Shown here: one piece after another, positions 18,178-64,000 of the stretch
How the letters are laid out: the number at the start of each line of letters is the position of its first letter
Position numbering within the stretch: position 1 is the first letter of the stretch
Source: Candidatus Omnitrophota bacterium
Lineage (GTDB): Bacteria; Omnitrophota; Gorgyraeia; Gygaellales; Profunditerraquicolaceae
Direction: 5' to 3'
DNA length: 64,000 bases
Assembly (NCBI GenBank): GCA_003598025.1
Contig: QZKH01000003.1
Span: forward strand, 375,221 to 439,220
Program-made: the position numbers and the translations under genes
Notes under the pieces: model-generated
Database searches by the model: none
Told to the model about the DNA's origin: nothing
What the model saw: the letters and a program-made list of their open reading frames with translations, nothing else

Positions 18178-18215
18178 AAAAAAATAAGGGGCTTCTATCT
18201 TTCGATAAAAGCCCC
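18178..18215 (-). terminator. Rho-independent terminator directly after pilA
   Basis: The stem GGGGCTTTTATC-gaaa-GATAGAAGCCCC is followed by TTATTTTTTT on the minus strand. Confidence 0.55.
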
Positions 18216-18240
18216 CACACACTAAAAAACTAACAGCCAG

Positions 18241-18648: not shown

Positions 18649-18712
18649 TGACCTCCTCTCTAAGGTTAAATTAGCTCTGACTCTCTGTCCTCGCTCTTAC
18701 GATCATCTTATA

Positions 18713-43253: not shown

Positions 43254-44486
43254 TTAACCCTTCGTGCTTTTGGAGATTTTCCTTTGTAAATCCAGGACCT
43301 TCTTATGCCTCATATTCTTTTCCTGCGCATCGATGTTATCGGCAAATTTTAAGGCTTCGGTATGAGGCCGCGGAGAATATTTGAATATGTAGGCTGAGTT
43401 AAATTCAACTTCTTTGACTAAATTGTAGGTATCCATAAAATCTTCTTCGGATTCACTGGGAAAGCCTACGATAACATCAGTAGTTAATACCCCATTTTTA
43501 ACTATTTTACGATAATTAGACACTAAATCCAAATAGAATTTTCTGGTATAACCCCTATTCATCAAATTAAGTATCTTATCAGAACCTGACTGCACCGGCA
43601 AGTGCAGTGATTTCTTGAGCTTGTCAAAGCCTGCCACTGCCTTAAAAAGTTCATTTGTTGTATCCCTAGGATGCGAAGTAAGGAAACTAAATTCCTTTAG
43701 CCCTTTAACCCTATTAACCATTTCCAATAATTTAACAAAATCTATGAACTCTGAACCATGAACTATGAACTTATAGGCGTTTACGTTCTGCCCCAATAGT
43801 GTAATACTCGTTATTCCTTTATCAATTGCCTGCTCAATTTCCTTGATTATATCCTCTGGCTTTCGCGAACGCAAATTTCCCCTGACATAAGGGACAACAC
43901 AATAAGAACAATAATTTTCGCAGCCTTCTGAAATTACCACAAAAGCATGATTCTTATCCGCATAAAATCCGGTATGATAAATCTCATCGGGCCTCACCAG
44001 ACTATCCGTTTCCCAAATTTTCTTCTCAAACATGCTTTTACCATTAACCATGAACTGTGAACCATGAACAAGTATCTCTATTATCCCCGGTATCTTATGT
44101 ATATCCGTTGGGCCAACAACAAAATCCACATTAGGCGCTATCTCAAAAACCTTATCTTTATAATTCTGCGCCATACACCCCACAAGGCCAATTATTGGTG
44201 ACTTTGTGACTTTGTGACTTTGTGACTCATTTTTGTAGGCACCTATCTGGCTCCAGACCCTATCCTCCGCATGCTGCCTAACCGCGCAGGTATTCAGGAT
44301 TATTACATCAGCAGCCTTAGGATCAGTTGATAGTTCATAGTTCATAGATCGTAACAAACCAGCGATAACCTCCGAATCCCGCGCATTCATTTGACATCCG
44401 AAGGTGCGCAAAAGCACTCGTAACTTCTTCTCGCTTTTGCCCCCGGAATTGCCTGATTTGTCGTCTTTTCGCTCATTTTCAACCAT
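43254..44486 (-). CDS. miaB: tRNA-2-methylthio-N6-dimethylallyladenosine synthase (MTTase). The N-terminus is atypical and overlaps the recombinase gene.
   Basis: RTFGCQMN MTTase motif, radical-SAM CENYCSYC and a TRAM-like C-terminus. It contains in-frame 7- and 8-nt tandem repeats. Confidence 0.75.
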   Translation of the reverse strand: MVENERKDDKSGNSGGKSEKKLRVLLRTFGCQMNARDSEVIAGLLRSMNYELSTDPKAADVIILNTCAVRQHAEDRVWSQIGAYKNESQSHKVTKSPIIGLVGCMAQNYKDKVFEIAPNVDFVVGPTDIHKIPGIIEILVHGSQFMVNGKSMFEKKIWETDSLVRPDEIYHTGFYADKNHAFVVISEGCENYCSYCVVPYVRGNLRSRKPEDIIKEIEQAIDKGITSITLLGQNVNAYKFIVHGSEFIDFVKLLEMVNRVKGLKEFSFLTSHPRDTTNELFKAVAGFDKLKKSLHLPVQSGSDKILNLMNRGYTRKFYLDLVSNYRKIVKNGVLTTDVIVGFPSESEEDFMDTYNLVKEVEFNSAYIFKYSPRPHTEALKFADNIDAQEKNMRHKKVLDLQRKISKSTKG

Positions 44487-46066
44487 TTTGTCCCCTCTTC
44501 ATAGCAAGTCTTCCACGGCTCATTCAGCTCGAACTTCACGATCTCCTGATTCTGGATGTGAATCGACTTGAAGATGATCCGCATAAAGGTTTTGACCAGA
44601 TAATCCAACTGGTGGTCATCCGGCGTGTTCCGCAACCTCAAAAGGAAATCCTGCGTCGCCTTAACAAGGTTTGCGGAATTGCGCTTATCCAGAATCTTGA
44701 GCTGAATCGCCTTGATATCCTGCTTTAGTTTTTTCTCTTCATTACTTAAAAGCTCTGCTCTTTCCTTGTAGAGCGCAAGATTAATCTTATCCTCCGAGAA
44801 AAGCTCGTAAATCCCCCGTTGCTTCTCAATATTTTTCTTAAGATGCGCTTCCTTCTCCTCCAATTGTTCAATGTATAATTGCTCCGGCTCAGAAGCGCTT
44901 AATTTGATCATGTCACCCAACTCCTCGATGACATGGATATTCTTTCGGATGACTTCAATAATATCCCATATCGGCCTATTGAGCGCGTCAGCCGTAACCG
45001 ATTTATTATTGCACTTAATATGCGGAATGCCCTTCGATGAGCAACGATACCACGGCCTGCGCATCTTGGTGCGATGATTAACGGTAGACATAATTCCGCG
45101 ATAATTACCGCCGCATTCATTGCACTTTATGATTCCAGAAAGATGATAAACATTATTTCTAAACCTAACCACGCCATTGGTGCGGTTCCGTTTAAGAAGC
45201 TCTCTTGCCTCGTCAAAATCTTTTTGCGTGATGATCGCCTCGTGGGTATTGAATACTTCAATAATCTTCGAGGGATCGTTATTCACATACTTATACCCTT
45301 TACCTTCGCCGTTCTTAGTTTTCTCTTTTGTGTTGTAGCGGCGACGGTTCCACACCAGCATGCCCAGATAAACTTTGCTCTGCAGAATATTGGAGATGAA
45401 TTTGTTATAAAACCGGCCTCCCTGCCGCGATGGAATCCCGAGAGCGTAATAATGCCCGGCAATCTGCGAAGTGCTTTTGCCGCTGATATACATCGCATAA
45501 ATCTCTTTAACGATCTTTGCTTCCTCCGGATGGACTTCCAGTTTCTTGGCGTCTTTATTATATCTGTAGCCATACGGCGCATACCTCGCGCCCTGCCAGT
45601 GGCCACGCTTAACCCCTACGACCATGCCGGGAAATACGCGCTCAACCAGACGATTGCGTTCAAACTCTGCGCAACTACCAAGCATCTGAATCGCCATCTT
45701 TCCCGCGCTGGACGTAGTATCAAACGGTTCGGTGGCTGATTTATATCCGATACCAAGTGAATCAAACTCCTCAAGCAATCCCAGCAGATCCTTGAGCCGC
45801 CTGCTTAAACGATCTTGTTTGTAGACCAAAACAAGATCAAATTGTTTATTACGCGCGTCAAACAAAAGCCGCTGAAGCGCCGGTCTGTCCATATTCCCGC
45901 CGGAATAGCCATCATCCACATAAACATCCCTGCCTGACATGGTACAAATAACATCCCAGGTGAAATTTTTCGCGTATTGCAAAAGATATGCCCTCTGAAC
46001 CTCCAGCGAAAAGCCTTCCCGCGCCTGATCCTCTGTGCTGACTCTTGTATATAACGCTACTCTCAT
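44387..46066 (-). CDS. Large serine recombinase (integrase)
   Basis: N-terminal resolvase catalytic domain MRVALYTRVSTEDQ with the catalytic Ser, a recombinase domain, a Zn ribbon (CNECGG) and a coiled coil. 559 aa. Confidence 0.85.
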   Translation of the reverse strand: MRVALYTRVSTEDQAREGFSLEVQRAYLLQYAKNFTWDVICTMSGRDVYVDDGYSGGNMDRPALQRLLFDARNKQFDLVLVYKQDRLSRRLKDLLGLLEEFDSLGIGYKSATEPFDTTSSAGKMAIQMLGSCAEFERNRLVERVFPGMVVGVKRGHWQGARYAPYGYRYNKDAKKLEVHPEEAKIVKEIYAMYISGKSTSQIAGHYYALGIPSRQGGRFYNKFISNILQSKVYLGMLVWNRRRYNTKEKTKNGEGKGYKYVNNDPSKIIEVFNTHEAIITQKDFDEARELLKRNRTNGVVRFRNNVYHLSGIIKCNECGGNYRGIMSTVNHRTKMRRPWYRCSSKGIPHIKCNNKSVTADALNRPIWDIIEVIRKNIHVIEELGDMIKLSASEPEQLYIEQLEEKEAHLKKNIEKQRGIYELFSEDKINLALYKERAELLSNEEKKLKQDIKAIQLKILDKRNSANLVKATQDFLLRLRNTPDDHQLDYLVKTFMRIIFKSIHIQNQEIVKFELNEPWKTCYEEGTKWLKMSEKTTNQAIPGAKARRSYECFCAPSDVK

Positions 46067-46067
46067 T

Positions 46068-46838
46068 TTATACCCTTTGCGCCTTACGTAATTCTATGAA
46101 CTCCTCATCGCTAATTTCCTTATTTTCATAAACAGTTTCATCCCGTAATAAATTTTGTCCTTTGACCGTTTCAACACGATGTCCGTAGCCAGTTAAAATA
46201 CAATGTGGGATTATCATTTCCTTAACAAACGGATTTTCCTCAGCAGTCTTCTTTATATATATTTCACCAGGTGACCAGAAATAGATATCTTCTCTTGCGC
46301 CTACCGCAAAAAAATATGTCGTAATATCATAAATTATTTTTAAAGCGCTTAAAGTTTTGGCCTCAATGTCTTCCAGCTTATTAAAATGAATAACTTCGTG
46401 CCGAATATCTTTAAGCTCCATATACTTCACTTTTATCTCATCTGAGATAATTACCTTCCAATCACATAATATGTCTACCGATTTCGACCAATCATCGAAT
46501 GAATCTTTTCTATATATATGCTTGTAGTGTTCACTAGATTTATAATGATCTCGAAGTCGCAGTAAAAGAATATTAAAAATCCTTTCGCCCAAACAACATG
46601 CGGAGGTTAATGCGGGATAATATAAACCATAAATGAAGCAATCCTCTATTTCTTGCAGTAAATCATGATATTCAGTAATTACCCGTAACGAAGGTGGCTT
46701 AAAAGACATATATCTCTCAAATTTTTCATCAAGATTCAAATCGCCGTAACGACTAGCAACATGCTGTTTTATTTCCTGCGGCACAGGAATATTTCTAATG
46801 CAATCAATAAAGAAATTTGTTGCCCTATATCGCTTCAT
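46068..46838 (-). CDS. Uncharacterised 256-aa cargo protein of the element
   Basis: No motif recognised. It lies between the Xis-like gene and the integrase, with a 1-bp gap to the integrase gene. Confidence 0.4.
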   Translation of the reverse strand: MKRYRATNFFIDCIRNIPVPQEIKQHVASRYGDLNLDEKFERYMSFKPPSLRVITEYHDLLQEIEDCFIYGLYYPALTSACCLGERIFNILLLRLRDHYKSSEHYKHIYRKDSFDDWSKSVDILCDWKVIISDEIKVKYMELKDIRHEVIHFNKLEDIEAKTLSALKIIYDITTYFFAVGAREDIYFWSPGEIYIKKTAEENPFVKEMIIPHCILTGYGHRVETVKGQNLLRDETVYENKEISDEEFIELRKAQRV

Positions 46839-46845
46839 CCCTAAA

Positions 46846-47040
46846 TCACCCTTCTTTTAACGTCTCCCGCCACTCTTTAATCTTGGCGATACACTCATCC
46901 GTAAACACCGGCCAGTCTTTATAATCGCGTTTGGGTTTGACCCAGCCTTTGCGGATCCAATTGATCATGGTCTGGCGGTGCACACCCAACATCTTTGCAG
47001 TCTCTGTCATGGTGTAAGTTTTCATATTTGGCATCCTCAA
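46846..47040 (-). CDS. Excisionase/AlpA-like small HTH DNA-binding protein
   Basis: TMTETAKMLGVHRQTMINWIRKGWVKP is a helix-turn-helix of the Xis/MerR-like type. 64 aa. Confidence 0.55.
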   Translation of the reverse strand: MRMPNMKTYTMTETAKMLGVHRQTMINWIRKGWVKPKRDYKDWPVFTDECIAKIKEWRETLKEG

Positions 47041-47073
47041 CTATTGGTGCCCAGTATACCGTAATATACAACC

Positions 47074-47295
47074 TTATACAAGTGGTTTTTTCTCCGCGGA
47101 ATAAATCGTCATAAACATTTTTGCAAGCGTTTCAATCCCCTCAAAGAATGACTTTCGGGCTTCTTGGATTTCGGCACAAGACAAACCGCGGCTTTTAAGC
47201 TTTATCTCTAAAGCCTCCCAGCCCCGCAGGGTAACCGCCTGATCCTTATTTGTGCTTACATCCTTGTCCATTTTTCCCACTGCCCAATAGGACAT
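47074..47295 (-). CDS. Hypothetical small protein (73 aa)
   Basis: ORF only. Its start codon is embedded in the inverted repeat 47290-47326. Confidence 0.3.
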   Translation of the reverse strand: MSYWAVGKMDKDVSTNKDQAVTLRGWEALEIKLKSRGLSCAEIQEARKSFFEGIETLAKMFMTIYSAEKKPLV

Positions 47296-47371
47296 TCGGA
47301 CATCGCAAATGTCCGGTTGTGTCCGGTTTTACTGACATACTGACATCCAAAATGTCAGAGGATGTCAGTCA
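47290..47371. promoter_or_regulatory. Two operator-like composite inverted repeats in the element's regulatory region
   Basis: First: GGACAT-tc-GGACAT-cgcaa-ATGTCC-ggttgt-GTCCGG. Second: CTGACAT-a-CTGACAT-ccaaa-ATGTCAG-agg-ATGTCAG. Both have tandem direct half-sites mirrored. Confidence 0.45.
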
Positions 47372-47715
47372 AAACGCCATCCAAAACCCATGAAATCCCC
47401 CAAATTTGACCTTTTTCCCTCAAAAAACGCCTATTTCAGCAACTTTTGACCCGATTTTAACGTTCTCCCGATAACCCCATATGACATGACATCGCTTTTT
47501 TAAAATTTTGTATCACTGACAAACTGCGCCTCGCCCGACCCGCGGCCGACACCTCCTTGGAAGGACCCGTGAACCGGCCTTAAGCTACCAGTGACAACAA
47601 TGACATTTTTTCTCATGGTTATCTTTTTACTTCCCGCACTCAATCCTCCTGCTCCTTACTCCCAACCTACGAACACAATTAATGAAAATTTCTGTCATAA
47701 TCGTCATAGCTGTCA

Positions 47716-49845
47716 TTAGAATGGCCGCTCCGAATAATCAACCTCACCCTCCTTGCGGATGCGTATGCCGTCCCATCGACGCGATGCGCCACACCGCCCT
47801 CTATTGATAACGGTATATTGACGCAAGATCTCTCGGCCAAACATGATCTTGCTAAGCGGACGGTATTCGCTCTCAAGGCACCAGTCCCGGTAAGCCACAT
47901 ACAGGGCGTCATAGCTTACGTCTGCCTGAGCATCCAAAATGCACTGCTCCTCAACGAAAATAATGACGTTATTGTTCTCCTTGCGATAGGCGTCCTTCAC
48001 GGTCTGCATCGATGCGCTCTCCTCGAAATACCCGCGTTTTCGTAAACGCGTAAGGCCGTTAAGAGACCACAAGAAAATACCGTCCAATTCACTGGCCACG
48101 ATCTTGTGCTTTAACTTGGGATCACGTTCCTCTATGGAAAACTGCCGGTTAAAAGGAAGAATCAAAAGACGCCGGTAATACCCTTCGGTCTTATCCCCCA
48201 CGCGCGGCATGTTATTAGTTGAGAAAAGAAGCTTGCAGTAAGGTTTGAACTGAAACGGCTGGCCGTATTTTTCGTCAGCGGAGATCGTATCGCCGGTCAC
48301 GATCGCCTTGAACATGTTGTCATAGACATTTGTCTTGGCATTGGTTTCAAGGCTGATATTGACCAGTTTGTCCCGAAGCCGGGCGATGTAATGGGAATCG
48401 TTAAACTTCTCAAGCGGAATGGATGAGCAATTATCCTTGCCGATAAGCTCCTCGAGTACATACAAAACAACGCTCTTGCCGTTGGCCCCCTCGCCAAACA
48501 AAAAGAGCGCCTTTTCATAATCATTGTCTCGGGTGAGGCAATAGCCGAAATACTCCTGCAAAAGCATAATCCGGGCCGCGTCGCTTTCGAATATCTGATC
48601 AAGACTCTTCTGCCACAACAAACACTCGGCGTTCTCGCGATATGTCACATTAAGCTGGTTGATGGAATAGACGTCCGCCGAATGCGGCAAGAGCTTCATC
48701 TTGTCGATGTCATAAAGCCCGTTTTTGACATTAAAGAGCGTGATGCCATTAATGATGTCCGGCTTGATGAAAGTCTCGGTCTTAAGAGCAACCAGAACAT
48801 TGCGAAGCTTGCTCGCCGAAAACCCGGCCCCGCACGCATCCTTGATCCACTTCTGAACCTCCTCGATAAAGAGCGGCCGGTAACATCCGCCTTTATATTC
48901 GTAATAGGTGTCAGCGAAGTTGATTAGCCGATGATGTTTGAGGATTTCGTCAGCGACCTCATTGGCATTAACCTTTCTGGCTATCAGCAGGCTTGGTCGC
49001 GATGGCGTATAAACCTCACGACAATCATTCACCGCCTTTTCGATAACCGACTGACCATAAGTCCGGCCATCTCCGAAATGCTTTTCATCCCACTTGGGCC
49101 GCATAAGGCCGGACTGCCGGAATAACGCATCCATCTGCCCGGAGTCTTTGCCTGTCCAAAACGCCAGCTTATTGCAGAGTGCCAGATCCGCTTCACTTTG
49201 AGAGGGATAATCATTCTGCCATTGGCCGGAATAAAGCCGCTGAAATCTCTCCGCGTCTTTGCTCTTGGCGATTAAGGAAAGGATCTCGTTCGCGGGAGCT
49301 TTATCTACAAACCGACCGAATATGTCTTTAAGCGCATCGGTACATTCTTTCAGTTCAGCCGGATAGTTTTCAAGGCGGTTGCCGGTAACGGTAAAGAATC
49401 GGCCCTTTGTATAAATCTCCAAGCCGATCTTTGAAATCTTGCAGGCCCGGGCAATCTTGCCCTTACAAAGAATATGAATACCGGTGCCGCTTGGCGAATA
49501 CTCGGAATAGGAATTTAGCGCCTTGAGAATCTCAACCGCATAAGGCACGATGGCTCCATCTTTGACGCAATGATCGATATCCACGCCCACATATGGTGGC
49601 TGGAATACAAAGCCTACTCCCGCATACCCGCGCTGAAGCGCAAGATCGCTTGCGGTCGTATAATCCGTCCATGTGCTTGGATCGTTTGTTTTGGCAGGAC
49701 GTCCGCTCAGGACGTTCATCGGGACCTTGTCGGTGCGGTCTTTATTGCGCCTAAGCTCGTACCCAACCCAACAAGACAATTTGAGCAGTTCCTGAGGAAT
49801 AACCTCTTCCATCGTTCTCTTCTCTTTTCTTCTCTCGTCTTCCAT
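47716..49845 (-). CDS. Primase-helicase with an N-terminal prim-pol/bifunctional primase domain and a C-terminal P4-family/D5-like SF3 helicase
   Basis: The N-terminus YAGVGFVF..DIDH..SPSGTGIHIL is a primase-polymerase fold. The C-terminal Walker A GEGANGKS places it in the P4 alpha/D5 family. 709 aa. Confidence 0.8.
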   Translation of the reverse strand: MEDERRKEKRTMEEVIPQELLKLSCWVGYELRRNKDRTDKVPMNVLSGRPAKTNDPSTWTDYTTASDLALQRGYAGVGFVFQPPYVGVDIDHCVKDGAIVPYAVEILKALNSYSEYSPSGTGIHILCKGKIARACKISKIGLEIYTKGRFFTVTGNRLENYPAELKECTDALKDIFGRFVDKAPANEILSLIAKSKDAERFQRLYSGQWQNDYPSQSEADLALCNKLAFWTGKDSGQMDALFRQSGLMRPKWDEKHFGDGRTYGQSVIEKAVNDCREVYTPSRPSLLIARKVNANEVADEILKHHRLINFADTYYEYKGGCYRPLFIEEVQKWIKDACGAGFSASKLRNVLVALKTETFIKPDIINGITLFNVKNGLYDIDKMKLLPHSADVYSINQLNVTYRENAECLLWQKSLDQIFESDAARIMLLQEYFGYCLTRDNDYEKALFLFGEGANGKSVVLYVLEELIGKDNCSSIPLEKFNDSHYIARLRDKLVNISLETNAKTNVYDNMFKAIVTGDTISADEKYGQPFQFKPYCKLLFSTNNMPRVGDKTEGYYRRLLILPFNRQFSIEERDPKLKHKIVASELDGIFLWSLNGLTRLRKRGYFEESASMQTVKDAYRKENNNVIIFVEEQCILDAQADVSYDALYVAYRDWCLESEYRPLSKIMFGREILRQYTVINRGRCGASRRWDGIRIRKEGEVDYSERPF

Positions 49846-49847
49846 CG

Positions 49848-50078
49848 TTACACTCCGTTTTGAAATAGATAATCTTTAACCCTTCGGTAACAATCAAACA
49901 GCTTGCGCGCCTCTGAATCGGCATAAAAGTCCTCGCAGGCCTTATGAACAGCCGGGATGTCGTCAAACAAGACCCGCTTAAGCCTCCCCGAACCTTCAAT
50001 ACCCCGCATGGCAAACCCGCAATAAAGTAAATACGTAGCCAAATAGAGATTCCCTGCCTCAAAATGCTTGTTTTTCAT
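49848..50078 (-). CDS. Hypothetical small protein (76 aa) upstream of the primase gene
   Basis: ORF in operon position, 2-bp gap to the primase start. The ORF track also lists an alternative overlapping 103-aa ORF. Confidence 0.3.
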   Translation of the reverse strand: MKNKHFEAGNLYLATYLLYCGFAMRGIEGSGRLKRVLFDDIPAVHKACEDFYADSEARKLFDCYRRVKDYLFQNGV

Positions 50079-50093
50079 AGTTTCAATGCCTCC

Positions 50094-50357
50094 TACTAGC
50101 TACATACGCAAGGATTTGGAAAACTGACGGAAATATTTTCATTTTTTTCGACCCTCTACTAGCTACATACGACGTTTTTTGTAAAACTGACGGAAATATT
50201 TTCACTTTCTTCACCACTTTCACTCCCCTAAGCGTATATTCCCCTTTTTCCCGAAAAGTGTCGGAACTTTCTGCCCCCTCATAGGTGATTACGCAAAATT
50301 TCCAAAAGTGTCGGGGCTCTCACCTATGTACACGCAATATTTTTCAAAGTGTCGAAC
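50094..50357. repeat. Iteron-like direct repeats (putative origin of the element)
   Basis: Two 48-bp direct repeats (50094-50141 and 50157-50204, sharing CTACTAGCTACATACG...AAAACTGACGGAAATATTTTCA). Three copies of AAAGTGTCG(G/A) at about 50253, 50303 and 50344. ATAGGTGA/TCACCTAT flanks the middle copy. Confidence 0.5.
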
Positions 50358-50414
50358 TGCCCTTCTACTAACCCATACAGGAACTTTCCCGAAACTGGCG
50401 TAACTATTTACGCC

Positions 50415-50456
50415 TAACAAGAAAAAGCCATCTCCGGCCAATTGACTGGAAATGGC
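50415..50456 (-). terminator. Rho-independent terminator of the ars operon
   Basis: Stem GCCATTTCC-loop-GGAGATGGC, followed on the minus strand by TTTTTCTTGTT. Confidence 0.45.
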
Positions 50457-50611
50457 TTTTCCCGCACAGGCGAAACAGTGATCAGCTGTCCCGTAAGTCT
50501 ATTTTAATTTTATAACAGCGCGAATCTTTCTCAAGGGGGTCGTTACTACAAAATAGCAATAATTAGAAGAGGGCCTTTTTGCTAAAAAAGGCTTTTGGAA
50601 GGAGTAATTCT

Positions 50612-51037
50612 TTATATTGACTTAATCCACTCTTTGATTTTTACTTCTATCTGATCTCTGACCTCTTTTGTTTTCTTCAGCTTCTCTTCCGGCGATCCAG
50701 TAAAAGCGGATGGGTCCGGGAATCCCCAGTGAAGTTTTTGCGCAATGCCCGGGAATATCGGGCACCTCTCCGATTGCGATTCATCGCAGACGGTAACCAC
50801 ATAATTGTAGAGTTTGCCTTGCTTATAAAAATCAAACACACTCTTGGTTTTATTCTGCGAAATATCGATCCCGGCGTCTTTCATCGCCTCGACTACAACG
50901 GGATTGAGCTTGCCCGGCTCAAGGCCTGCGCTCTCCACCTCAAAACGATCGCCTGCATATTTCTTCAAGAATGCCTCTGCCATCTGCGAGCGCGCAGAGT
51001 TGTGAATACATACAAACAAAACCTTTTTCTTATCCAT
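50612..51037 (-). CDS. arsC: Arsenate reductase, LMW-PTPase family (thioredoxin-coupled)
   Basis: P-loop CIHNSARS (CX5R) and downstream Cys residues. 141 aa. Confidence 0.8.
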
Positions 51038-52130
51038 GGCTACCGCCCGATAATTTAAACCAATTTTGGGTTCTCAAACAAACCTTAACCAGCATCAGCA
51101 TCACCGGCACTTCGATAAGGACTCCTACAACCGTTGCCAGTGACGCTCCGGATGAAAGTCCGAAAAGAATTGTCGAAGTGGCGATAGCCACCTCAAAGTG
51201 ATTGCTCGCCCCTACCAACGCCGACGGTGCCGCATCCCGATACGACAGCTTCAACCATTTTGCCAAAGCATATGTTATGGCGAAAATAAGGCAGGTTTGA
51301 ATGAAAAGCGGTATCGCTATAAGAAAAATTATTTGCGGCTGGTTAATGATCAACTCCCCCTTAAAAGAAAACAACAAAACCAGCGTCAATAGCAATGCGC
51401 ATATCGAAACCGGCGTCAGATAATGCAGGAATTTCTCCTCAAACCACTTGAATCCTTTCTTGGCGATCAGCAATTTTCTTGAGTAATAGCCCAGGAGTAG
51501 CGGTAACCCGACATAGATCACCACTGACAATACGATTGTCTGCCACGGAATAGGCATTTTATTCACACCCAAGAGCCATCCACCAAGCGGCGCATACAGA
51601 AACAGCATTGTGAGGGAATTGATAGCTACCATAACAAGCGTGTGGCCGTCGTTTCCTCTAGCCAAATGCCCCCAGATCAGAACCATGGCCGTGCATGGCG
51701 CTATGCCTAACAAAATGCATCCTGCGATATACGACCGAAACAATTCGACCTGCGCCCCGCCTTTAACAATCTCCATCCCCGGAAGCCACCCTTTAAACAA
51801 TACCCCAAGGAAAAGCCATGCGATCGCAAGCATCGTAAACGGTTTTATGCACCAGTTCACAACTAAAGTCAGAATAACCGGCTTAGGCGCCTTTCCTGCT
51901 TTAATGACCTCCGCAAAATCAATCTTGACCATGATCGGGTACATCATGAAGAATAGGCAGATTGCGATAGGAATAGACACTTGATAAATCGAGATCTGAT
52001 CCAACGCCACCGCCACCTGCGGAAACAACTTGCCCAAAGCGATCCCAATTCCGATACAAAGCACTACCCATCCAGTGAGATACTTCTCGAAAAAGCTTAA
52101 TTTTCGTTCCTCATGAATAACGTGTTCCAT
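51030..52130 (-). CDS. acr3: Arsenite efflux transporter ACR3
   Basis: ACR3/ArsB-type membrane protein. Ten predicted TM helices. 366 aa. Confidence 0.8.
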
Positions 52131-52139
52131 CCGCCCTCC

Positions 52140-52826
52140 TTAAAATAACCGCAGGATATAAATTCCTGTGTAATAAAGACCGACAAGAATAAAAATCACC
52201 CCGGTAATTCTACGGGTAAAAAATTCCAGCTTCGTGATCTTATTAAACCAATGGCTCATTGAAGTCACGCCCAATGCGATAGCGACAGCGAACACCAGCA
52301 CCGGAAGTCCTGTCCCTATCCCATAAATAAACGGCAATAGCGTCCCTGCTTTGCTATTAAGCGCTAATGGTATCAAACTGCCGAAGAATAACGCCGCTGA
52401 AACCGGACAAAACGCTAAAGCGAATATCAATCCCAAAAGAAAAGCGCCGGGAGCTCCGGACTCAACAAGTTTATTGTGATGTTTTTGAGACAATGCCACA
52501 CCGGGCAATTTTATCGTGATCACTTCAAGTAAAAATAATCCGGTGATTATCAAGAGAGGCCCTAAGGCCTTGACCATGTATTTCTGCAAAAACTGCGCCA
52601 CCTGCGGAACACTTAAAAGCGAACTGATAATGATCCAGCCAAGCACTGCATACGCCGCCATCCTGCCGAGCGTATAAGCCAGTCCTGAAATGAATACCAT
52701 AACCGGATGCGCAATTTTCTTCGAGAGAAAAGACACCGCCGCGATGTTTGTCGCCAAGGGACAAGGACTGATTGACGTTAATATCCCCAGCCACAGCGCA
52801 GACCCCAAAGCGATCAATAGCTCCAT
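52140..52826 (-). CDS. ccdA: CcdA/DsbD-family thiol-disulfide electron transporter
   Basis: Six TM helices with conserved Cys in TM1 (ISPCP) and TM4 (AFCP). Confidence 0.65.
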   Translation of the reverse strand: MELLIALGSALWLGILTSISPCPLATNIAAVSFLSKKIAHPVMVFISGLAYTLGRMAAYAVLGWIIISSLLSVPQVAQFLQKYMVKALGPLLIITGLFLLEVITIKLPGVALSQKHHNKLVESGAPGAFLLGLIFALAFCPVSAALFFGSLIPLALNSKAGTLLPFIYGIGTGLPVLVFAVAIALGVTSMSHWFNKITKLEFFTRRITGVIFILVGLYYTGIYILRLF

Positions 52827-53245
52827 TATTGCGCGTCCTTCATAAATGCGTTTACCTCACCAGTCACGTAATCCATAAACTTTTGCTTATTGCGGGCAAG
52901 CTCCCAAATCTTGTCGAGATTTTTTGACTTTACTTCCTTGCCGTCCTTGACCAGAGAAAGAATGAGCGTTTTCGTATACAGCTTATAGTCATTTACGAAA
53001 TGTTCGTTGCCCTTCTCCTCGACATTAACCGCCTTAAACTCAAGCCCGCCGGAAGCAAGGGCATCCTTAAAGTTTGCATCAATCGCTTCTCTTGAGTATT
53101 TCTCCATTGCGGTGCATGTAGGACACCGAAACGATCCATGAAAATAATACGCTATGACTTTCGCCTGCGGGCTTGATTGCGCTAAAGCGAAAGACCCGGC
53201 ACTAAGTGCCGCAACAACCGCAAGAACCTGAATTATTCTTTTCAC
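52826..53245 (-). CDS. Exported thioredoxin-like protein (CPTC). The start is re-set to GTG at 53245 behind an AGGAGG SD. The ORF-track start is 53278.
   Basis: After re-setting the start the signal peptide is MKRIIQVLAVVAALSAGSFALAQ. CPTC redox motif. Confidence 0.45.
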   Translation of the reverse strand: MKRIIQVLAVVAALSAGSFALAQSSPQAKVIAYYFHGSFRCPTCTAMEKYSREAIDANFKDALASGGLEFKAVNVEEKGNEHFVNDYKLYTKTLILSLVKDGKEVKSKNLDKIWELARNKQKFMDYVTGEVNAFMKDAQ

Positions 53246-53483
53246 ATCCGCCTCCTGAAAGGATTGTTTTGATCTCATTCTTACTTAAGACTTTCCCGGA
53301 TGAAACCACCTTGCCGTCAATGGCCAGCCCGGGCGTCATCATGACACCGTATTCGGTGATCTTGTCGATATCCGTCACCTTACCGATCTCAGCTTGAATA
53401 TTTAATTCTTTCACAGCCGCCTCAGCATTCGCCGTAAGCTGTTTGCATTTAGGACAACCGACACCTAATATCTCAATTTTCAT
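53202..53483 (-). CDS. Small thioredoxin-fold 'redox-active disulfide protein 2'-like protein with a Cys-rich C-terminal tail (start trimmed to MKIEILG)
   Basis: MKIEILGVGCPKCKQL matches the Thioredoxin_3/TIGR00412 style. The C-terminus is GGGCEKNNSGSCGCCGT. Confidence 0.55.
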   Translation of the reverse strand: MKIEILGVGCPKCKQLTANAEAAVKELNIQAEIGKVTDIDKITEYGVMMTPGLAIDGKVVSSGKVLSKNEIKTILSGGGCEKNNSGSCGCCGT

Positions 53484-53496
53484 TTTAAGCCTCCAA

Positions 53497-54279
53497 TTAT
53501 TTTTTAACTGCCGCAACCTTTACGCTAGCTATTGCATCTTGGGCGGCATCAAGATTATCAAACATAGCGTCTACTGGATAACTTGACTCGCTTATAACCT
53601 TGACGTCCTTAAATCCCGCTTGTTTAATAAAACCCAGATATTCCTCTTTTTTAATGGCTCCGGCAAGGCATCCCACATACGCCTCAACAGAATCTTTGAT
53701 TTTTTTCGGCAGATCTTTCGCCAATACCAAGTCCGAAACCATCAGCCTACCGCCTGTTCTTAAAACCCTATAAGCCTCCTTGAAAACCGCTTCTTTATCA
53801 GGCGAAAGGTTAATGACACAGTTTGAAATAATAACGTCAATGGAATTGTCCTCAACGGGTAATTTCTCAATCTCACCTAAACGAAATTCAATATTGGAAT
53901 ACTTACCCTTCTTAGCATTCTCATTCGCTTTAGAGACCATCTCGGGTGTCATATCAACGCCAATAACCCTGCCGGTCTTGCCAACTCGTTGTGCTGATAA
54001 GAAAGCGTCGAATCCCGCACCGCTCCCCAGATCAAGCACCACATCCCCTTCTTTTAACGAGGCCAGAGCAACTGGATTCCCACACCCAAAGCCTAAATTC
54101 GCCCCTTCGGGTACAGCGTTCATTTCAGATTCGCTATAGCCTACCTTTTTGCTGATGTCTTCCGCCTGTGTTACGCCGCCACAGCATGAACTTGATGAAC
54201 AGCATGATTTTTTCTGCGACAACGCTTTTGTATAGCCTTCTCTGACAATCTTTTTAATTTTATCCGCTTCGTTTCTCAT
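53497..54279 (-). CDS. arsM: Arsenite S-adenosylmethionine methyltransferase
   Basis: Class I SAM methyltransferase fold (VLDLGSGAG) with Cys clusters CCSSSSCC and GCGNP typical of ArsM. Confidence 0.8.
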   Translation of the reverse strand: MRNEADKIKKIVREGYTKALSQKKSCCSSSSCCGGVTQAEDISKKVGYSESEMNAVPEGANLGFGCGNPVALASLKEGDVVLDLGSGAGFDAFLSAQRVGKTGRVIGVDMTPEMVSKANENAKKGKYSNIEFRLGEIEKLPVEDNSIDVIISNCVINLSPDKEAVFKEAYRVLRTGGRLMVSDLVLAKDLPKKIKDSVEAYVGCLAGAIKKEEYLGFIKQAGFKDVKVISESSYPVDAMFDNLDAAQDAIASVKVAAVKK

Positions 54280-54280
54280 T

Positions 54281-54445
54281 TTATATCCCTTCCCTCCTCA
54301 TTTTCGAGGCGTTCTCTTTATCAACTTGCTTCTTGATCACTTCTTTGACAAAATCCAAGGCGCCATCTTTATCCCTGTCGATTACGATTCGCTCAACTCT
54401 AAGCAAATCATCCTCAGTAAGATTGATGGTCTTTTTAATTATCAT
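54281..54445 (-). CDS. Candidate small ORF (54 aa). Its start overlaps the arsP stop (ATGA) and it ends 1 nt before the arsM ATG.
   Basis: MIIKKTINLTEDDLLRVERIVIDRDKDGALDFVKEVIKKQVDKENASKMRREGI is charged and helical. It is below the ORF-track length cutoff. Confidence 0.3.
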   Translation of the reverse strand: MIIKKTINLTEDDLLRVERIVIDRDKDGALDFVKEVIKKQVDKENASKMRREGI

Positions 54446-55647
54446 TTAACCACCGCTCCAAAAATCATACCACTGATAGTTGCCATGACCACAACTAAAG
54501 CCACATACACTGCTGTTTTTTTGGTTCCCATGATGCTCCGAAGCACAAGCATGCTCGGCAAGCTCAAAGCAGGCCCGGCCAAGAGAAGCGCCAAAGCAGG
54601 CCCTTTACCCATTCCTGAGTTCATCAATCCCTGTAATATAGGCACTTCTGTAAGCGTGGCGAAATACATAAATGCCGCCACAATTGATGAGAAGAAATTC
54701 GCCCATAACGAATTGCCGCCAACAAGCATGGTCACATATCGTGAAGGGATAACTCCCTCATGTCCTACCCTACCAAGCAGAAAACCTGAAACTAAAACTC
54801 CTCCTAAAAGAAGCGGCAATATCTGAAGCGCAAAACCCCATGTCGCTCCAGTCCATTCTCTTAACTCATCCCTTTTGAACCACTTGAAGAGCATAATCGC
54901 TAAGCTCATAAAAGATAATCCAGCGATCCACCATTTATACTGATAAATTATTGACCAAATACCATGATCACCCTCAAGCGGCTTCCCCCAGTTAGCAAAC
55001 ACCAAAAAAGCTACCATTGAGGCGAAATATAAAACGGTTTTACCTAAGGAGCGGGTTTCTTTTAACTCTCCAACATTGAAGTCCCCATTGGCGTGACGAG
55101 CCCTTTCTTCTTTTAAAAAGATGAGATGCATTAATAGTCCGATGACAACACTAAATACCACCGCTCCAATAGCTCGTGCCAACCCTAGCTCCCACCCAAG
55201 GATACGTGCGGTTAGAATGATTGCTAAAACATTTATGGCAGGCCCGGAATATAGAAAAGCGATCGCGGGTCCAAGCCCTGCCCCTCTTTTGTATATGCCT
55301 GAAAATAGCGGTAAAACCGTACAAGAACAAACAGCGAGAATTGTTCCCGACACAGAAGCGACACTATAAGAAAGGAATTTATTCGCCTTAGCCCCGAAAT
55401 ACTTCATCACGGACGCTTGGCTGACAAAAACAGATATCGCTCCGGCTATAAAGAACGCCGGAACAAGACACAAAAGCACGTGCTCCCGGGCGTACCATTT
55501 AACAAGAGCCAGAGCCTCAAAGACAGCATTGGTAAAACGAAGATTTTCTACCGGCAGGTAAAAACAGCCTAAGAATATGGCGGCAATATAAAGAAACTTC
55601 TTCCACTCTTTCATTTCTTGACCGTCCTCCCTCCAATAGTACAGCAA
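54442..55647 (-). CDS. arsP: Permease of the DUF318/YraQ type, ArsP-like organoarsenical efflux permease
   Basis: Multi-TM protein with a conserved CSC in a TM helix (ILAVCSCTVLP, like the TPFcSCS motif). It sits in an ars operon next to arsM. Confidence 0.55.
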   Translation of the reverse strand: MLYYWREDGQEMKEWKKFLYIAAIFLGCFYLPVENLRFTNAVFEALALVKWYAREHVLLCLVPAFFIAGAISVFVSQASVMKYFGAKANKFLSYSVASVSGTILAVCSCTVLPLFSGIYKRGAGLGPAIAFLYSGPAINVLAIILTARILGWELGLARAIGAVVFSVVIGLLMHLIFLKEERARHANGDFNVGELKETRSLGKTVLYFASMVAFLVFANWGKPLEGDHGIWSIIYQYKWWIAGLSFMSLAIMLFKWFKRDELREWTGATWGFALQILPLLLGGVLVSGFLLGRVGHEGVIPSRYVTMLVGGNSLWANFFSSIVAAFMYFATLTEVPILQGLMNSGMGKGPALALLLAGPALSLPSMLVLRSIMGTKKTAVYVALVVVMATISGMIFGAVVK

Positions 55648-55919
55648 CCGCCTTCAATACGGATCGCCTTAACATTCACCAGCGCGTCTGTGACTTTTTT
55701 GCAGGCTGATGCAACAATCCGCGAAAATGTCGGCCGGGATATCTTCATAAGTTTTGCCGCATCCCTCTGCTTCATCGCTTCCAAGCAGGCCAGCCGCATC
55801 GCCTCAAATTCATCGATGCTTAAAACAACACCTTCGAGTTTATTCAAAGGCTTGCATTTTGGCCGGAAACATCTCTCCCCCGGCAAACATTTAACCCATC
55901 TTGTTTTCTTTGGACGCAT
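55611..55919 (-). CDS. DUF134 (UPF0251) predicted DNA-binding protein, Cys-rich
   Basis: MRPKKTRWV..P....FKP......LEGVVLSIDEFEAMRL..LE...Q.DAA..M.ISRPTFSRI is the DUF134 signature. It ends with a vicinal Cys pair (EGGCCTIGG). Confidence 0.6.
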   Translation of the reverse strand: MRPKKTRWVKCLPGERCFRPKCKPLNKLEGVVLSIDEFEAMRLACLEAMKQRDAAKLMKISRPTFSRIVASACKKVTDALVNVKAIRIEGGCCTIGGRTVKK

Positions 55920-55933
55920 AAATAGACCTTTCG

Positions 55934-55953
55934 GTTATGAACATTGGTTCATA
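55934..55953. promoter_or_regulatory. Perfect 8-4-8 palindrome TTATGAAC-attg-GTTCATAA, 15 nt upstream of the DUF134 start
   Basis: Seen in the sequence. It is a candidate operator of the ars operon. Confidence 0.35.
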
Positions 55954-56021
55954 ACAATTTTAACACAAAGCGGATCAATGTCAATGACAAAACATTCATG
56001 CGGCTACAAAATTGGTAATAA

Positions 56022-58505
56022 TTATTTGGAGGGTTTTGAAGCTGAGGAATTATTGGTATTGGATTTTTGTCTTCTTGACAATCGCTTCTGTCTTGTCTGT
56101 TCATACCATGTCCAATATGATTCAATACCCAGATGCATCTGTTGCGTCGCATCACACAAATTCTGAATTCCATCACGAATATGCCAATTATTGGCAAATG
56201 CTTCGTATGGCGTCCCCTTATCTTTCCAGCAAGAAGGTGGCTCAAAGTCATCAAATAGCTCAATGCCGGTTAGAATTAAAACGGGATTTACCCACTGCTC
56301 GGCTTTTAGATGTTTTCTGCCTCGCCTTGCCAAACTTGCAATCAACTTCTTTTCACGATCTTTTAAAGTCTTACGTAAAGTACAGAACGCAATAATAGCA
56401 CCCGGGAATTTATCCGCTATCACCCTCATGCGGCCCACATCTGCTTGAGTAAACTCATTGAAAGATTTACATTCTCCGAAAATAATTAACGGAGTCTTGA
56501 TTTCATCCATGCGGCCTTCCGATAAAAACATTCCAAAATCAGCTTCAAGCGGTTTCTCTTCTTTGGCTTTAAGAATAAATGACGGGATCCAAGTCATTTC
56601 GTTTGATAATCCATGGCCGCCAAAGAACTCTAAGCTAAGAGCGACACAATATCCGCCTTGTGCATAATTTTCGACTGAGAAAGGCCCGATTGTCCTCAAA
56701 TGCCAATTGTTCTCGGATATTGGTCTAACAATAGGAAAATCAAACTTCTCAAGGCATCTTTCGCAGACTACCATGTCAGATAAATCATCCAAGGAGTACC
56801 ATGTTCTCTGAGCACATTCAGGACACTGTAACGTTACTCCCCCTTTAAGAATTTTGTAGCCAAGCAAATTCTGAAGTCGTCTTTCAGCAATCTCGGGTGA
56901 ATTAGCTAGGCTGATTCTTTGCAATAAATCCTGCCATTTTTTCACTGGTACCGTCTTTGCGCGCACCTTCGATTTAATCTCTCCCTCGGCAGAACCTTCA
57001 ACTTCAGTTTCCACTGCGGCATGAGACATATCGTTTAGAAGCTTAACTATTTCTTCATCCTGAAATGCCCTTGCCCCATGTATGCCACCAACAGAGTCAA
57101 TGATCTTTAGCGAAATTCGCCCCGAACCAGAGAGCTCGATATCATAGCCTTGCTCCTTGAACCATGCCTCAAACACTTTCAGACTGCTGGGAATCTCAAA
57201 AAAATGGCTCCATTCATAATGTTCACAAGGAATATTAATGCCTTCATTAGATACCCAAGCCTTATGAAAGCTATGAGCTCCAAACAGATGGTATGCGTCT
57301 TTTAAATTCCTAGGGAGCACGGTCGGGCAATCATATCTTTTATAAAAATCTTTAAGCTTGAGAGTGTTCATCCAGCGAGGTTTTCCACCCCCACCGTAGC
57401 GGTCTACAAAACTTGGAGAAATATCTTTAAATCGCGCATAATCATCGTCCAAAGATATCTCTTCCGACTCTTCTTTCGCTACAATTGAGCAAAGCTCAAC
57501 ATGGTCTTTGTCTTTCGCCCATTCATCCCACATGCGCGGATACCAGTGCTGTAATGAATAAGCGTGATCTCCCGGGGAAGTTAATTTCTTGGAAAAAGCC
57601 TGCATCTCATCCATAGAGGATGATCGTGAGCAAATAAAAGTCGTATGGTGCATCATGTCCTTATTATGTCGGTAAGGCACATAATTATGCTTGATGATTC
57701 CATTGACCAAATCAATATAATGATCCGCATATTGTTTTGGAAGCGGCAACACATCCCTGCCCACTGCTCTTAAATTCCAATAGTCAACGATATCAAGCCA
57801 TGAGGTCGCGTCCATAAAGAATATCGACGCATCCGCCCTCCAGCCACGCGGAGACGCTTTAAGCTCGGCACGTGTTATCCTCATTGGAGAAACGCCTTCA
57901 TTTAAGAAGCATTCGAGAAAATTATTCGGCTTAATGAGCAAATCCTTGGCGTTAAAGCAATGACAATAATTTTTCTTAACATATGCCATTTCTTTCTTAT
58001 CAGGAAAATCGCCAAAACTACAGGCTGACAGCAAGGATATTTCCCTTGACGGCTTTGGACAAAATACTTTGATACGATGCCGCCGCTCAAACTTAAAATC
58101 CTTATCATACAAGTGCCAATATAAGTCGGTCACATCTACACCATACGATATTGGCTCTTCATCTTTACTATTCATAACGTCATCAAAGGACAGGAGTCGC
58201 TCTTTATCGAAAAGTGATCCGGCTATTTTCTGCTTATCTTTTACAACAAGATAATCCGGATCGAATGAATCCAAATACCCCTTAGTGATAGATGAGGCTG
58301 GAGGATGGCGGAATCGACGATCTTCCCAATTAGGTGGCGTTTTCTTGAAGTAAGGAATTATAGGATTATAAACCCCTCCCCACAGACAAGTATTAATCTT
58401 GAACACTTCTCGTAGGGTTCGGTTATCGTCCTTCTTAACCAAAAATGCAAGCCTGATCGGACGCAGTTTTTTATCAATCGTGATTTTCTTATCTTTTATC
58501 GCCAT
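56022..58505 (-). CDS. Uncharacterised 827-aa protein encoded directly downstream of hsdS. No family recognised.
   Basis: A 14-bp gap to hsdS on the same strand. Cys4 Zn ribbon CPEC-x16-CERC (aa 561-584). A PD-(D/E)xK-like D656...E678-C-K680 (ADFG...IIFGECK). Confidence 0.5.
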   Translation of the reverse strand: MAIKDKKITIDKKLRPIRLAFLVKKDDNRTLREVFKINTCLWGGVYNPIIPYFKKTPPNWEDRRFRHPPASSITKGYLDSFDPDYLVVKDKQKIAGSLFDKERLLSFDDVMNSKDEEPISYGVDVTDLYWHLYDKDFKFERRHRIKVFCPKPSREISLLSACSFGDFPDKKEMAYVKKNYCHCFNAKDLLIKPNNFLECFLNEGVSPMRITRAELKASPRGWRADASIFFMDATSWLDIVDYWNLRAVGRDVLPLPKQYADHYIDLVNGIIKHNYVPYRHNKDMMHHTTFICSRSSSMDEMQAFSKKLTSPGDHAYSLQHWYPRMWDEWAKDKDHVELCSIVAKEESEEISLDDDYARFKDISPSFVDRYGGGGKPRWMNTLKLKDFYKRYDCPTVLPRNLKDAYHLFGAHSFHKAWVSNEGINIPCEHYEWSHFFEIPSSLKVFEAWFKEQGYDIELSGSGRISLKIIDSVGGIHGARAFQDEEIVKLLNDMSHAAVETEVEGSAEGEIKSKVRAKTVPVKKWQDLLQRISLANSPEIAERRLQNLLGYKILKGGVTLQCPECAQRTWYSLDDLSDMVVCERCLEKFDFPIVRPISENNWHLRTIGPFSVENYAQGGYCVALSLEFFGGHGLSNEMTWIPSFILKAKEEKPLEADFGMFLSEGRMDEIKTPLIIFGECKSFNEFTQADVGRMRVIADKFPGAIIAFCTLRKTLKDREKKLIASLARRGRKHLKAEQWVNPVLILTGIELFDDFEPPSCWKDKGTPYEAFANNWHIRDGIQNLCDATQQMHLGIESYWTWYEQTRQKRLSRRQKSNTNNSSASKPSK

Positions 58506-58519
58506 ATTCTTTAAAAATC

Positions 58520-63802: not shown

Positions 63803-63810
63803 ACTTTTCC

Positions 63811-64000
63811 TTATTTGTAAGCGACCAGCTCGCCGCTATCAGCGAAGCTGTAATACTGGTTATCCCCTATAATTAAGTGATCGAGCACTTTGACCTGCAT
63901 CACATTGCCTGCCTGACAGAGCTCCCTTGTGAAATCCCTGTCCTCTTTGCTTGGTTTCGGATCCCCTGATGGATGATTGTGCAAACAGATGATCGATACC
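63811..64000 (-). CDS. RadC-like JAB/MPN domain protein (DUF2466), C-terminal part. The gene continues beyond the window.
   Basis: Reverse translation gives ...CLHNHPSGDPKPSKEDRDFTRELCQAGNVMQVKVLDHLIIGDNQYYSFADSGELVAYK*, which has the JAMM-like HNHPSG motif. Confidence 0.6.
   Translation of the reverse strand, partial: VSIICLHNHPSGDPKPSKEDRDFTRELCQAGNVMQVKVLDHLIIGDNQYYSFADSGELVAYK

Follow-up and report, generated by a model that had tools for sequence, protein, structure and literature searches.

The Burkholderia podophage JC1 (Bcep22-like, Lessievirus) enters the 5' end of rimO by means of a serine recombinase and provides an ATG with which rimO stays in frame, and in JC1-related prophages the integrase gene overlaps its target, which carries a phage-borne ATG and a changed N-terminus (PMC9144972). 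A large survey lists integrase clades that target rimO, and miaB is absent from that list (PMC7192596). Islands and prophages at dusA depend on an integrase clade dedicated to the 5' end of this tRNA-modification gene, with element sequence replacing the 5' end (PMC4482086), and pattern-2 elements of the staphylococcal cassette chromosome (SCC) family carry a large serine recombinase beside a Primase_Cterm/D5_N helicase (Cch2), the iteron origin being placed between the two or next to them (PMC7581432). Here we describe a genomic island at miaB in a Candidatus Omnitrophota bacterium, found in a stretch of 64,000 nucleotides (nt; hereafter the window) that spans positions 375,221 to 439,220 of contig QZKH01000003.1 (assembly GCA_003598025.1). 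On the evidence of alignments with related elements, the island lies in the 5' coding region of miaB and was placed there by a large serine recombinase. We read positions 44395 to ~50590, with a probability of about 0.7, as the conserved integration and replication core of a larger island of at least 19.6 kb that runs off the window. Use of miaB as a target by a serine integrase or recombinase was not described in the literature that we searched; the target and the integrase lineage appear new, and the strategy of restoring the 5' end is already known for the sister gene rimO.

The integration junction in miaB

Related loci (numbered with the prefix L) were gathered by a metagenome scan and by exact-protein look-ups. 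One of them, L081, is an IMG/VR contig with genes for a T7_gp14-like internal virion protein and a small terminase upstream of its integrase gene, and with genes for a metallo-beta-lactamase-fold nuclease and a repressor downstream; it has no miaB, and by its gene content it is a T7-like or podovirus-like phage. The window and L081 align across the whole integrase gene to ...GTGCTTTTGCGCACCTTCGGATG, with 44395 as the last position, and beyond it the window reads TCAAATGAATGCGCGGGATTCGG (miaB) and the phage CAAGATGGCGGCAATG. According to BLAST end points, the window, L081 and the unintegrated L095 and L175 are co-linear to ...TTGCGYACCTTCGGATG (44395) and then diverge. After the break the unintegrated forms read CAAGATGG, GCCGATG or GCCTTC, with L095 and L175 running into non-miaB DNA, whereas the integrated forms (L091, L092, L093, L094, L098, L178, L181, L182 and L183) continue into miaB as YCARATGAAY. 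Homology with the unintegrated forms stops between 44395 and 44394, inside ACC TTC GGA TG/T CAA ATG AAT (the slash marks the break), which encodes T-F-G-C-Q-M-N. The left part of the junction, TTCGGATG, hardly differs among integrated copies; in native genes it takes various forms (TTTGGCTG, TACGGGTG and others), and the right part differs by host. Because the left part is constant with the element and the right part varies with the host, we place the exchange at about TG/YC. As judged from these comparisons, it falls within the DNA for the invariant MiaB motif T-F-G-C-Q-M-N (TTCGGATG/YCARATGAA), with the attachment arm of the element contained in the 3' end of the integrase gene. Scans of viral contigs with DNA patterns of other attachment forms returned L081 itself alone.

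The same alignments indicate that integration trims the integrase by about 20 residues. The protein has 573-586 amino acids (aa) in unintegrated forms and 559 aa here, the shortening arising because its frame meets a TGA within the ATG-AAT (Met-Asn) codons of the host gene. L099 has both a junction of the unrecombined type (...TTCGGCTG/GCCGGTGG) and, 6.3 kb downstream of it, a miaB that looks native and has a short N-terminus (9481-11202 and 17332-18696); a 1865-aa open reading frame (ORF) separates the two. The 8-mer GGATGTCA occurs both in palindrome arms at 47339-47369 and at the integrase-side junction (44388-44399, CGGATGTCAAATG); sister junctions read CGGATGCCAG instead, and the sharing is probably due to chance. 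We rejected TTTGGATG motifs within 47296-47715 as a candidate internal attachment site, the palindrome arms being conserved with the integrase operon in relatives.

The complete miaB ORF (43254-44486) scores 386 bits against the TIGR01574 MiaB model (cutoff 355.3), with RimO and MtaB scores below their cutoffs, and it overlaps the integrase gene by 100 nt (44387-44486) in a different frame. Its first 31 codons, MVENERKDDKSGNSGGKSEKKLRVLLRTFGC, coincide with the 3' end of the integrase gene, read in a second frame. The phage L081 encodes a homologous MAENRPNTGSSGGKTQKKPRVLLRTFGC in the second frame of its own integrase 3' end, with no miaB after it. Because homology with L081 extends to ...CTTTTGCGCACCTTCGGATG (44395) and because the phage carries MAENRPNTGSSGGKTQKKPRVLLRTFGC on its own, we assign MiaB residues 1-31, the ribosome-binding site (RBS) and the start codon to the element. 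In L092 and L093 the N-terminus is nearly that of the window although the MiaB bodies are 64% and 41% identical to that of the window, so that, as far as these comparisons reach, the MiaB N-terminus tracks the element and not the host. Since the element brings its own RBS and ATG together with ~31 codons that end in RVLLRTFGC, its integration at the T-F-G-C-Q-M-N DNA rebuilds an intact miaB. The gene would then be transcribed from element promoters, probably as the last gene of an operon that also holds the genes for a 73-aa protein (p73), a helix-turn-helix (HTH) protein, a 256-aa protein (p256) and the integrase.

The first-pass annotation, made from the window alone, had placed a recombinase-bearing element at the 5' end of miaB, with a 100-nt overlap of the two genes and a MiaB N-terminus that may be element-derived. 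All three points are borne out: the overlap is real, the integrase-side junction has been mapped against L081, L095 and L175, and the origin of the N-terminus is supported by these three unintegrated forms and by sister elements in hosts whose MiaB bodies are 41-64% identical to that of the window. It had also proposed a comparison with relatives free of the insertion, and such empty sites exist. The closest relatives of the MiaB body are Candidatus Omnitrophota proteins at no more than 59% identity, and the order miaB, TPR/SPOR gene, miaA, hflX is common to the window and its Omnitrophota relatives. Five of these (L001, L002, L003, L005 and L006) keep the gene order, have unrelated genes upstream and lack a recombinase. 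Their MiaB N-termini are short, of the MKKIFIRTFGC type, native MiaBs having 4-12 residues before the motif. In a sixth Omnitrophota relative, L004, a 41%-identical recombinase overlaps miaB as it does in the window. The aim of defining both attachment ends in this way was half attained, in that the integrase-side junction was mapped and the far junction was not found.

The MiaB protein comprises UPF0004 and Radical_SAM domains in 410 aa, without a C-terminal TRAM domain. Omnitrophota relatives are equally short (375-397 aa), and MiaBs targeted elsewhere by the same integrase clade have 423-491 aa, so the missing TRAM domain seems, from these lengths, to be a trait of the lineage and not damage done by the element. 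Within the miaB coding region, at 44195-44226, an 8-nt unit (TTTGTGAC) is repeated in tandem, in frame, in three to four copies.

The choice of target is shared by a wide clade. A database search with the integrase returned 475 proteins at E <= 1e-60, and at ~26 loci a methylthiotransferase gene adjoins or overlaps the gene for a related integrase (38-92% identical), one of these loci being in a Smithella metagenome-assembled genome (MAG). The ten targets that we tested all score above the cutoff of the MiaB equivalog model and below those for RimO and MtaB. In L001 (1277) and L005 (7738), a second methylthiotransferase paralogue has the same 17-nt TAYGGNTGCCARATGAA motif, yet all ten of the integrase-adjacent targets are MiaB. 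Two loci show unusual arrangements at the site. L114 (118-258, 2017-2173 and 3130-3217) holds two direct 88-bp copies of the attachment region, from the surrogate miaB start through QMNIVD, which flank a 1-kb two-gene cassette between the integrase gene and miaB, and a 141-bp inverted copy near the contig end. A hitch-hiker cassette that lacks an integrase and uses the rebuilt site could explain this, as could an assembly artefact. In L174 (9147-9600 and 14117-14594), a syntenic host miaB has a surrogate 5' end and only the last ~165 nt of an integrase gene; adjacent and inverted is a complete element (HTH gene, p256 gene, UvrD helicase, integrase), which runs at its end into another 5' region resembling that of miaB (77% identical). 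A fossil scar, an inversion or a chimeric assembly could account for it.

Extent of the island and competing explanations

The first-pass annotation ended the element at 50410, but homology with the sister elements L093 and L095 continues to ~50571-50590, beyond which the three flanks are unrelated. In the window, 40 bp with a terminator hairpin separate this core edge from the stop codon of an ArsC-like gene. The variable blocks of L093 and L095 start at the same nucleotide as the core edge and hold candidate defence genes: one for a 1370-aa NACHT-like STAND protein in L093 (1456-5568), and those for a DUF5677 protein and an AAA_15 ATPase with an OLD-type TOPRIM nuclease in L095 (2988-6250). 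Both loci then share an HsdR-like gene (97% aa identity). This is the pattern expected if the core edge is a cargo hotspot inside a larger element. At the unrecombined site of L095 more than 10 kb of further genes follow, including a LexA-like gene downstream of the site, and a LexA-like homologue lies 10 kb upstream of the integrase gene in the integrated L178 and L179, as expected for circular permutation. When the HsdR-like gene of L093 was used to extend the search upstream, only an unrelated Brocadiaceae locus was returned.

The cargo of the window itself would consist of arsenic-resistance and restriction genes. Pfam matches beyond the core edge (50612..64000) include an LMWPc ArsC-like protein, an ACR3-type SBF transporter, DsbD_2, a thioredoxin-like protein, an ArsM-like methyltransferase, ArsP and DUF134, and the type I restriction-modification genes HsdS/M/R occupy 58520-63802. 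Between these two groups lies an 827-aa ORF (56022-58505) with no Pfam match, which may be a defence gene, and just upstream of HsdR, at 63810-64000, is the end of a RadC/JAB-like gene (HNHPSG motif, read by eye), of a kind typical of mobile islands. Leave-one-out tetranucleotide correlation to the host part of the window is 0.92-0.975 per 6-kb segment up to 45 kb, and 0.75-0.82 from 45 to 63 kb. In the pairwise matrix, host segments correlate with each other at 0.89-0.94, the foreign segments (core, arsenic genes, 827-aa ORF, restriction-modification genes) at 0.83-0.88, and host with foreign at 0.68-0.79. Tetranucleotide composition marks 44.4-64 kb as one foreign block. The compositional check that the first-pass annotation proposed gave a break at the boundary between host and island, while its statement that the region is richer in GC than its flanks is true of the left flank only (45% in the core, ~41% on the left), the right flank being as GC-rich as the core.

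We consider it unlikely that the element is a self-contained 6.2-kb satellite- or plasmid-like integrative element from 44395 to ~50590, with the arsenic and restriction-modification genes belonging to a separate older island or to host DNA. The same core and outer edge do recur in three contexts (window, L093, L095), the 6.2 kb hold an integrase, an HTH protein, a primase-helicase, iterons and an inward-facing promoter-like site, and L183 looks small too. Conservative insertion by a serine recombinase, however, must leave the native 5' fragment of the target at the far edge. No native miaB 5' remnant lies beside the core edge, where there are only the 40 bp before the arsC stop codon, or anywhere up to 64000, and the element is not bounded at 50410. 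The return of conservation past the variable block of L093 and L095 is hotspot behaviour, the L095 site continues into further genes, the stretch 50.6-64 kb is like the core in composition and unlike the host, and no packaging or capsid-redirecting genes were found in the core. The self-contained 6-kb unit of the first-pass annotation is therefore probably not what the window holds. From the foreign block, the hotspot pattern and the absent miaB remnant together, we take the sequence from 44395 to at least 64000 to be a single island, whose far attachment site is presumably beyond the window.

Several points weigh against this larger island and its rebuilt target. The far junction, which would join a host arm to an element arm, was found neither in the window nor in any relative, and this leaves the boundaries and excision unproven; one hybrid junction has been mapped, against four unrecombined forms. 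The searches comprised local alignment of the junction against 49800-50700 and a pattern search allowing three mismatches, [FY]GC peptide regular expressions in all frames of the window and about 50 loci, and the right-hand arms of L081, L095 and L175. Among the four unintegrated forms, the right-hand arms show only a loose resemblance. The distal genes of the window have no homologue in the sister loci, and their island membership rests on composition and analogy. L183 is a small-looking element between an ABC transporter gene and a truncated receiver-domain fragment with no miaB remnant, a pattern that cargo would explain and that a lost far site would explain too. In the 3' region of the integrase gene we found no sigma-70-like promoter that could serve miaB.

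Some of these points would also fit a locked-in island, in which deletion has removed the far attachment site together with the 5' end and promoter of the native miaB, so that the element cannot excise and the host depends on the element-borne miaB start. No native 5' remnant occurs within the 19.6 kb of the window or in the visible flanks of L093, L098, L123 and L183, and the L174 host miaB with its surrogate 5' end and ~165-nt integrase stub is fossil-like. We nevertheless regard this as improbable, given that the integrase, HTH and primase genes are intact and that hosts with MiaB bodies 41-64% identical to that of the window have a core that is 92-98% identical, implying recent mobility; in L093, for example, the primase and the small DUF5659 protein of its operon are 92-98% identical despite a MiaB body of 41% identity. 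The visible flanks, moreover, are limited to 10 kb, while the relatives indicate elements of 20-40 kb. A related speculation, to which we give as little weight, is gene capture: the native miaB start and promoter would have been lost after integration, leaving the element as owner of the only functional miaB start and transcription signals. Loss of the element would then be costly (addiction), the 2-methylthio-N6-isopentenyladenosine (ms2i6A) modification would be tied to the integrase operon, and the shortening of the integrase would act as a directionality switch. Its basis is the lack of a remnant in any of four contexts and the L174 miaB with a surrogate 5' end and an integrase stub only.

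The integration module has been found with T7-like phage genes (L081, L082), the window-type primase operon (L092, L093, L095), another primase-polymerase (L179, L183), a UvrD helicase (L174) and Replic_Relax/ArdA plasmid-like genes (L181), and one module with so many partners points to module exchange. Very improbable, finally, is a remnant of an L081/L082-type T7-like temperate prophage that integrated at miaB and lost its structural genes by deletion: the phages do carry an integrase 81-84% and a p73 63-65% identical to those of the window, with T7_gp14-like and terminase genes beside the same module, but they lack the HTH gene and the primase/DUF5659 operon, have only the integration module in common with the window, and the core is kept as a unit without phage genes in L092, L093 and L095, with all its ORFs intact here.

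Genes and control regions of the core

The features of the locus are collected in Table 1. All ORFs that the first-pass annotation listed were recovered intact on the minus strand, and neither the recombinase nor the primase is degraded to a pseudogene.

Table 1. Features of the miaB locus and the island, in coordinates of the window.
Feature	Position	Strand	Remarks
miaB, host-derived body	43254..44394	minus	codon ~32 (...QMNARDSEV) to stop codon
Integrase-side attachment junction	44370..44420	minus	element arm joined to host arm
Element-encoded surrogate miaB 5' end	44395..44500	minus	RBS GAGGGG, ATG 44486, codons 1-31
Large serine recombinase (integrase)	44387..46066	minus	559 aa, intact
Accessory gene (p256)	46068..46838	minus	256 aa; between HTH gene and integrase gene
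HTH_17/MerR-type protein	46846..47040	minus	64 aa
p73	47074..47295	minus	73 aa; part of integration module
Intergenic control region with palindromes	47296..47715	minus	420 bp
Primase-polymerase fused to D5/P4-type superfamily 3 (SF3) helicase	47716..49845	minus	709 aa, intact
DUF5659 small protein	49848..50078	minus	76 aa; first gene of primase operon
Upstream control and iteron region	50079..50590	minus	end of conserved core
Probable distal cargo of same island	50612..64000	minus	

The identification of the integrase as a large serine recombinase stood up to domain searches, with PF00239 Resolvase (117 bits), PF07508 Recombinase (77) and PF13408 Zn_ribbon_recom (41) all above their cutoffs, a match to phrog_95 integrase (3e-112) and the catalytic motif YTRVSTEDQ at residues 6-14. 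The protein is 100% identical to RJP29067.1, from an Omnitrophota MAG, and 81-86% identical to its counterparts in L081 (81%), L082 and L091. Its best NCBIfam matches are CcrB (186 bits) and CcrC (161 bits), for which the cutoffs are 900. In L175 (3041-4710), the nearest relative with a gene for p256, the integrase is broken into pieces of 464 aa and ~95 aa by a frameshift or stop, and the junction runs into non-miaB DNA. The 64-aa HTH protein matches HTH_17 (27.5 bits, cutoff 27) as well as MerR_1 and a PHROG excisionase, and a homologue lies directly upstream of the integrase gene in ~30 related loci, at identities down to 39%. It may be the excisionase (recombination directionality factor) or may regulate the integrase. 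For p73 there was no family match in Pfam, PHROG, PADLOC or NCBIfam; genes for homologues (62-82% identical) are found at this position in the phages L081 and L082 and in L091-L095, L098, L119, L130 and L175.

The p256 protein likewise has no match in Pfam, PHROG, PADLOC or NCBIfam, and its family of 253 members has no Pfam model. The gene is missing from L091, L092, L093 and L095, whose HTH and integrase genes are directly adjacent, and present in L175 (89% identical) and L174 (75%). GC content at third codon positions is 0.30, compared with 0.55-0.60 in neighbouring genes. Residues R146 and H151 (Rx4H) are invariant in 31 homologues, and an AlphaFold2 model (pLDDT 90) has HEPN domains as its top PDB matches, which are weak (E 0.2-1, target TM-scores 0.58-0.67). 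The model and the motif suggest that p256 is probably a HEPN-like RNase inserted as an accessory gene.

The replication protein was correctly called a primase-polymerase with a P4/D5-family helicase. It matches the Pfam domains NrS1-1 HBD, D5_N, DUF5906 and Pox_D5, scores 241 bits against TIGR01613 ('primase, P4 family', primase_Cterm; cutoff 108.7), matches phrog_1829 at 5e-165 and contains the motifs VDIDH, SGTGIH and GEGANGKS; its N-terminal primase is an archaeo-eukaryotic primase (AEP)-type primase-polymerase. The protein is 92-96% identical in L092, L093 and L095, and the DUF5659 protein (a Pfam match) 97-99% identical in L093 and L095. The closest full-length relatives in cultured phages are ~30% identical and belong to ordinary temperate phages of Firmicutes.

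Both control regions that had been described are present. The 420-bp region contains the palindromes ACTGACATCC/GGATGTCAGT and GACAT...ATGTC, and a stretch at 47486-47570 is conserved in L091, L098, L119, L130, L175 and L178, which bear other replication modules. Judging from these features, it may be either the operator and promoter of the p73-HTH-integrase operon or a replication origin downstream of the primase gene; origins of staphylococcal pathogenicity islands and SCC elements sit just downstream of the rep gene (PMC7581432). A search of the gaps, including this region, had no match to any Rfam family, which ruled out a known RNA there. The upstream region holds a repeat of 57-63 nt in two copies at 50087-50212 (57-nt unit, 50093-50212) and iterons of CCGACACTTTT at 50254, 50304 and 50345, and five copies or near copies of the latter fall within 235 bp on one strand, compared with 25 in the whole window on both strands. 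A hairpin follows at 50408-50475, a promoter-like TTGAGA-16-TAAAAT at 50534-50507, and the conserved terminal block of the core is GTAGTAACGACCCCCTTGAGAAAGATTC. The same types of motif, in other copy numbers, occur upstream in L093 and L095. The primase-helicase would replicate an excised circle from one of these two iteron or palindrome regions.

Comparison with known systems

The locus defines a clade of large serine integrases that is widespread and shares a single target, mapped precisely and constrained by the protein: the 17-nt TTYGGNTGYCARATGAA, the coding sequence of FGCQMN in MiaB. The clade reaches poorly known phyla such as Omnitrophota as well as Smithella, and its module travels on phages, primase islands and plasmid-like elements. 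New pairs of integrase and attachment site could be of use in genome engineering, and an integrase gene overlapping miaB could serve as a marker for islands and for host-virus links in uncultured lineages. For annotation, the first ~31 codons of such miaB genes should be regarded as element DNA.

After JC1 at rimO, this is a second independent case of a serine-recombinase element at the conserved N-terminal motif of a methylthiotransferase gene, with a surrogate start in an overlapping frame. L081 and L082, which bear the window-type integrase, are also podovirus-like. The target of JC1, however, is rimO, a paralogue of miaB, and the two recombinases are 24% identical over 146 aa, indicating an independent lineage; on this value we rejected the JC1 recombinase as an orthologue. 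The attachment site of JC1 lies 41 bp upstream of its recombinase gene, whereas here it is inside the 3' coding region of the integrase gene, and JC1 alters 6 of 10 residues, whereas the element in the window supplies ~31 and makes the protein longer. Its carrier is an island and not a phage.

The dusA integrase clade resembles that of the window in being borne by both prophages and cargo islands (PMC4482086). It differs in that the dusA integrases are tyrosine recombinases with another target gene, and that a 5' remnant of dusA stands at the far end, where none was found here. Of the traits of 5'-end integrators of the JC1/rimO and dusA type, the new in-frame start and N-terminus are thus present, and the displaced native 5' fragment was not found up to 64000 or in the visible flanks of relatives.

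Myxococcus phage Mx8 (intP/intX) also has its attachment site in the 3' end of the integrase gene, whose C-terminus is altered on integration, but its integrase is a tyrosine recombinase, its target is a tRNA gene, and it supplies no N-terminus to a target gene. The P4 satellite has a tyrosine integrase and integrates at a tRNA gene. The window element shares with it the C-terminal helicase domain of the P4-family primase (TIGR01613), an AlpA/excisionase-type HTH protein, iterons, and a defence and cargo hotspot between conserved segments, but has a serine recombinase and miaB as its target, with no tRNA gene in the window. No core ORF had a PHROG, Pfam or PADLOC match to psu, sid, a delta-like gene or any capsid-redirecting, packaging or helper-exploiting gene. 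The label of P4-like element given in the first-pass annotation is not supported: the element is not a P4-family satellite, and the helicase domain is all that its primase has in common with P4.

SCC and SCCmec elements insert at the end of an RNA-modification gene and carry variable resistance cargo (PMC7581432). The likeness extends to a replication helicase operon with iterons and palindromes by the recombinase gene, and to cargo that varies among relatives and here comprises arsenic-resistance and restriction-modification genes. It is a distant relation, since the integrase scores far below the Ccr cutoffs (CcrB 186 against 900), and SCC elements insert at the 3' end of rlmH, occur in another host phylum and replicate with a primase that is an A-family polymerase pair, not an AEP primase-polymerase fused to the helicase. 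We dropped the Listeria phage LP-030-2 as a further example of a P4-type primase with a serine integrase (its integrase has 384 aa, and its family is unstated). The first-pass annotation regarded the joining of a serine integrase to a P4-type primase as an unusual mosaic, but SCC pattern-2 elements already pair the two (PMC7581432). The pairing of serine integrase and P4-type helicase is not rare, and the island at miaB shows a known strategy applied to a new target by an independent lineage of integrases.

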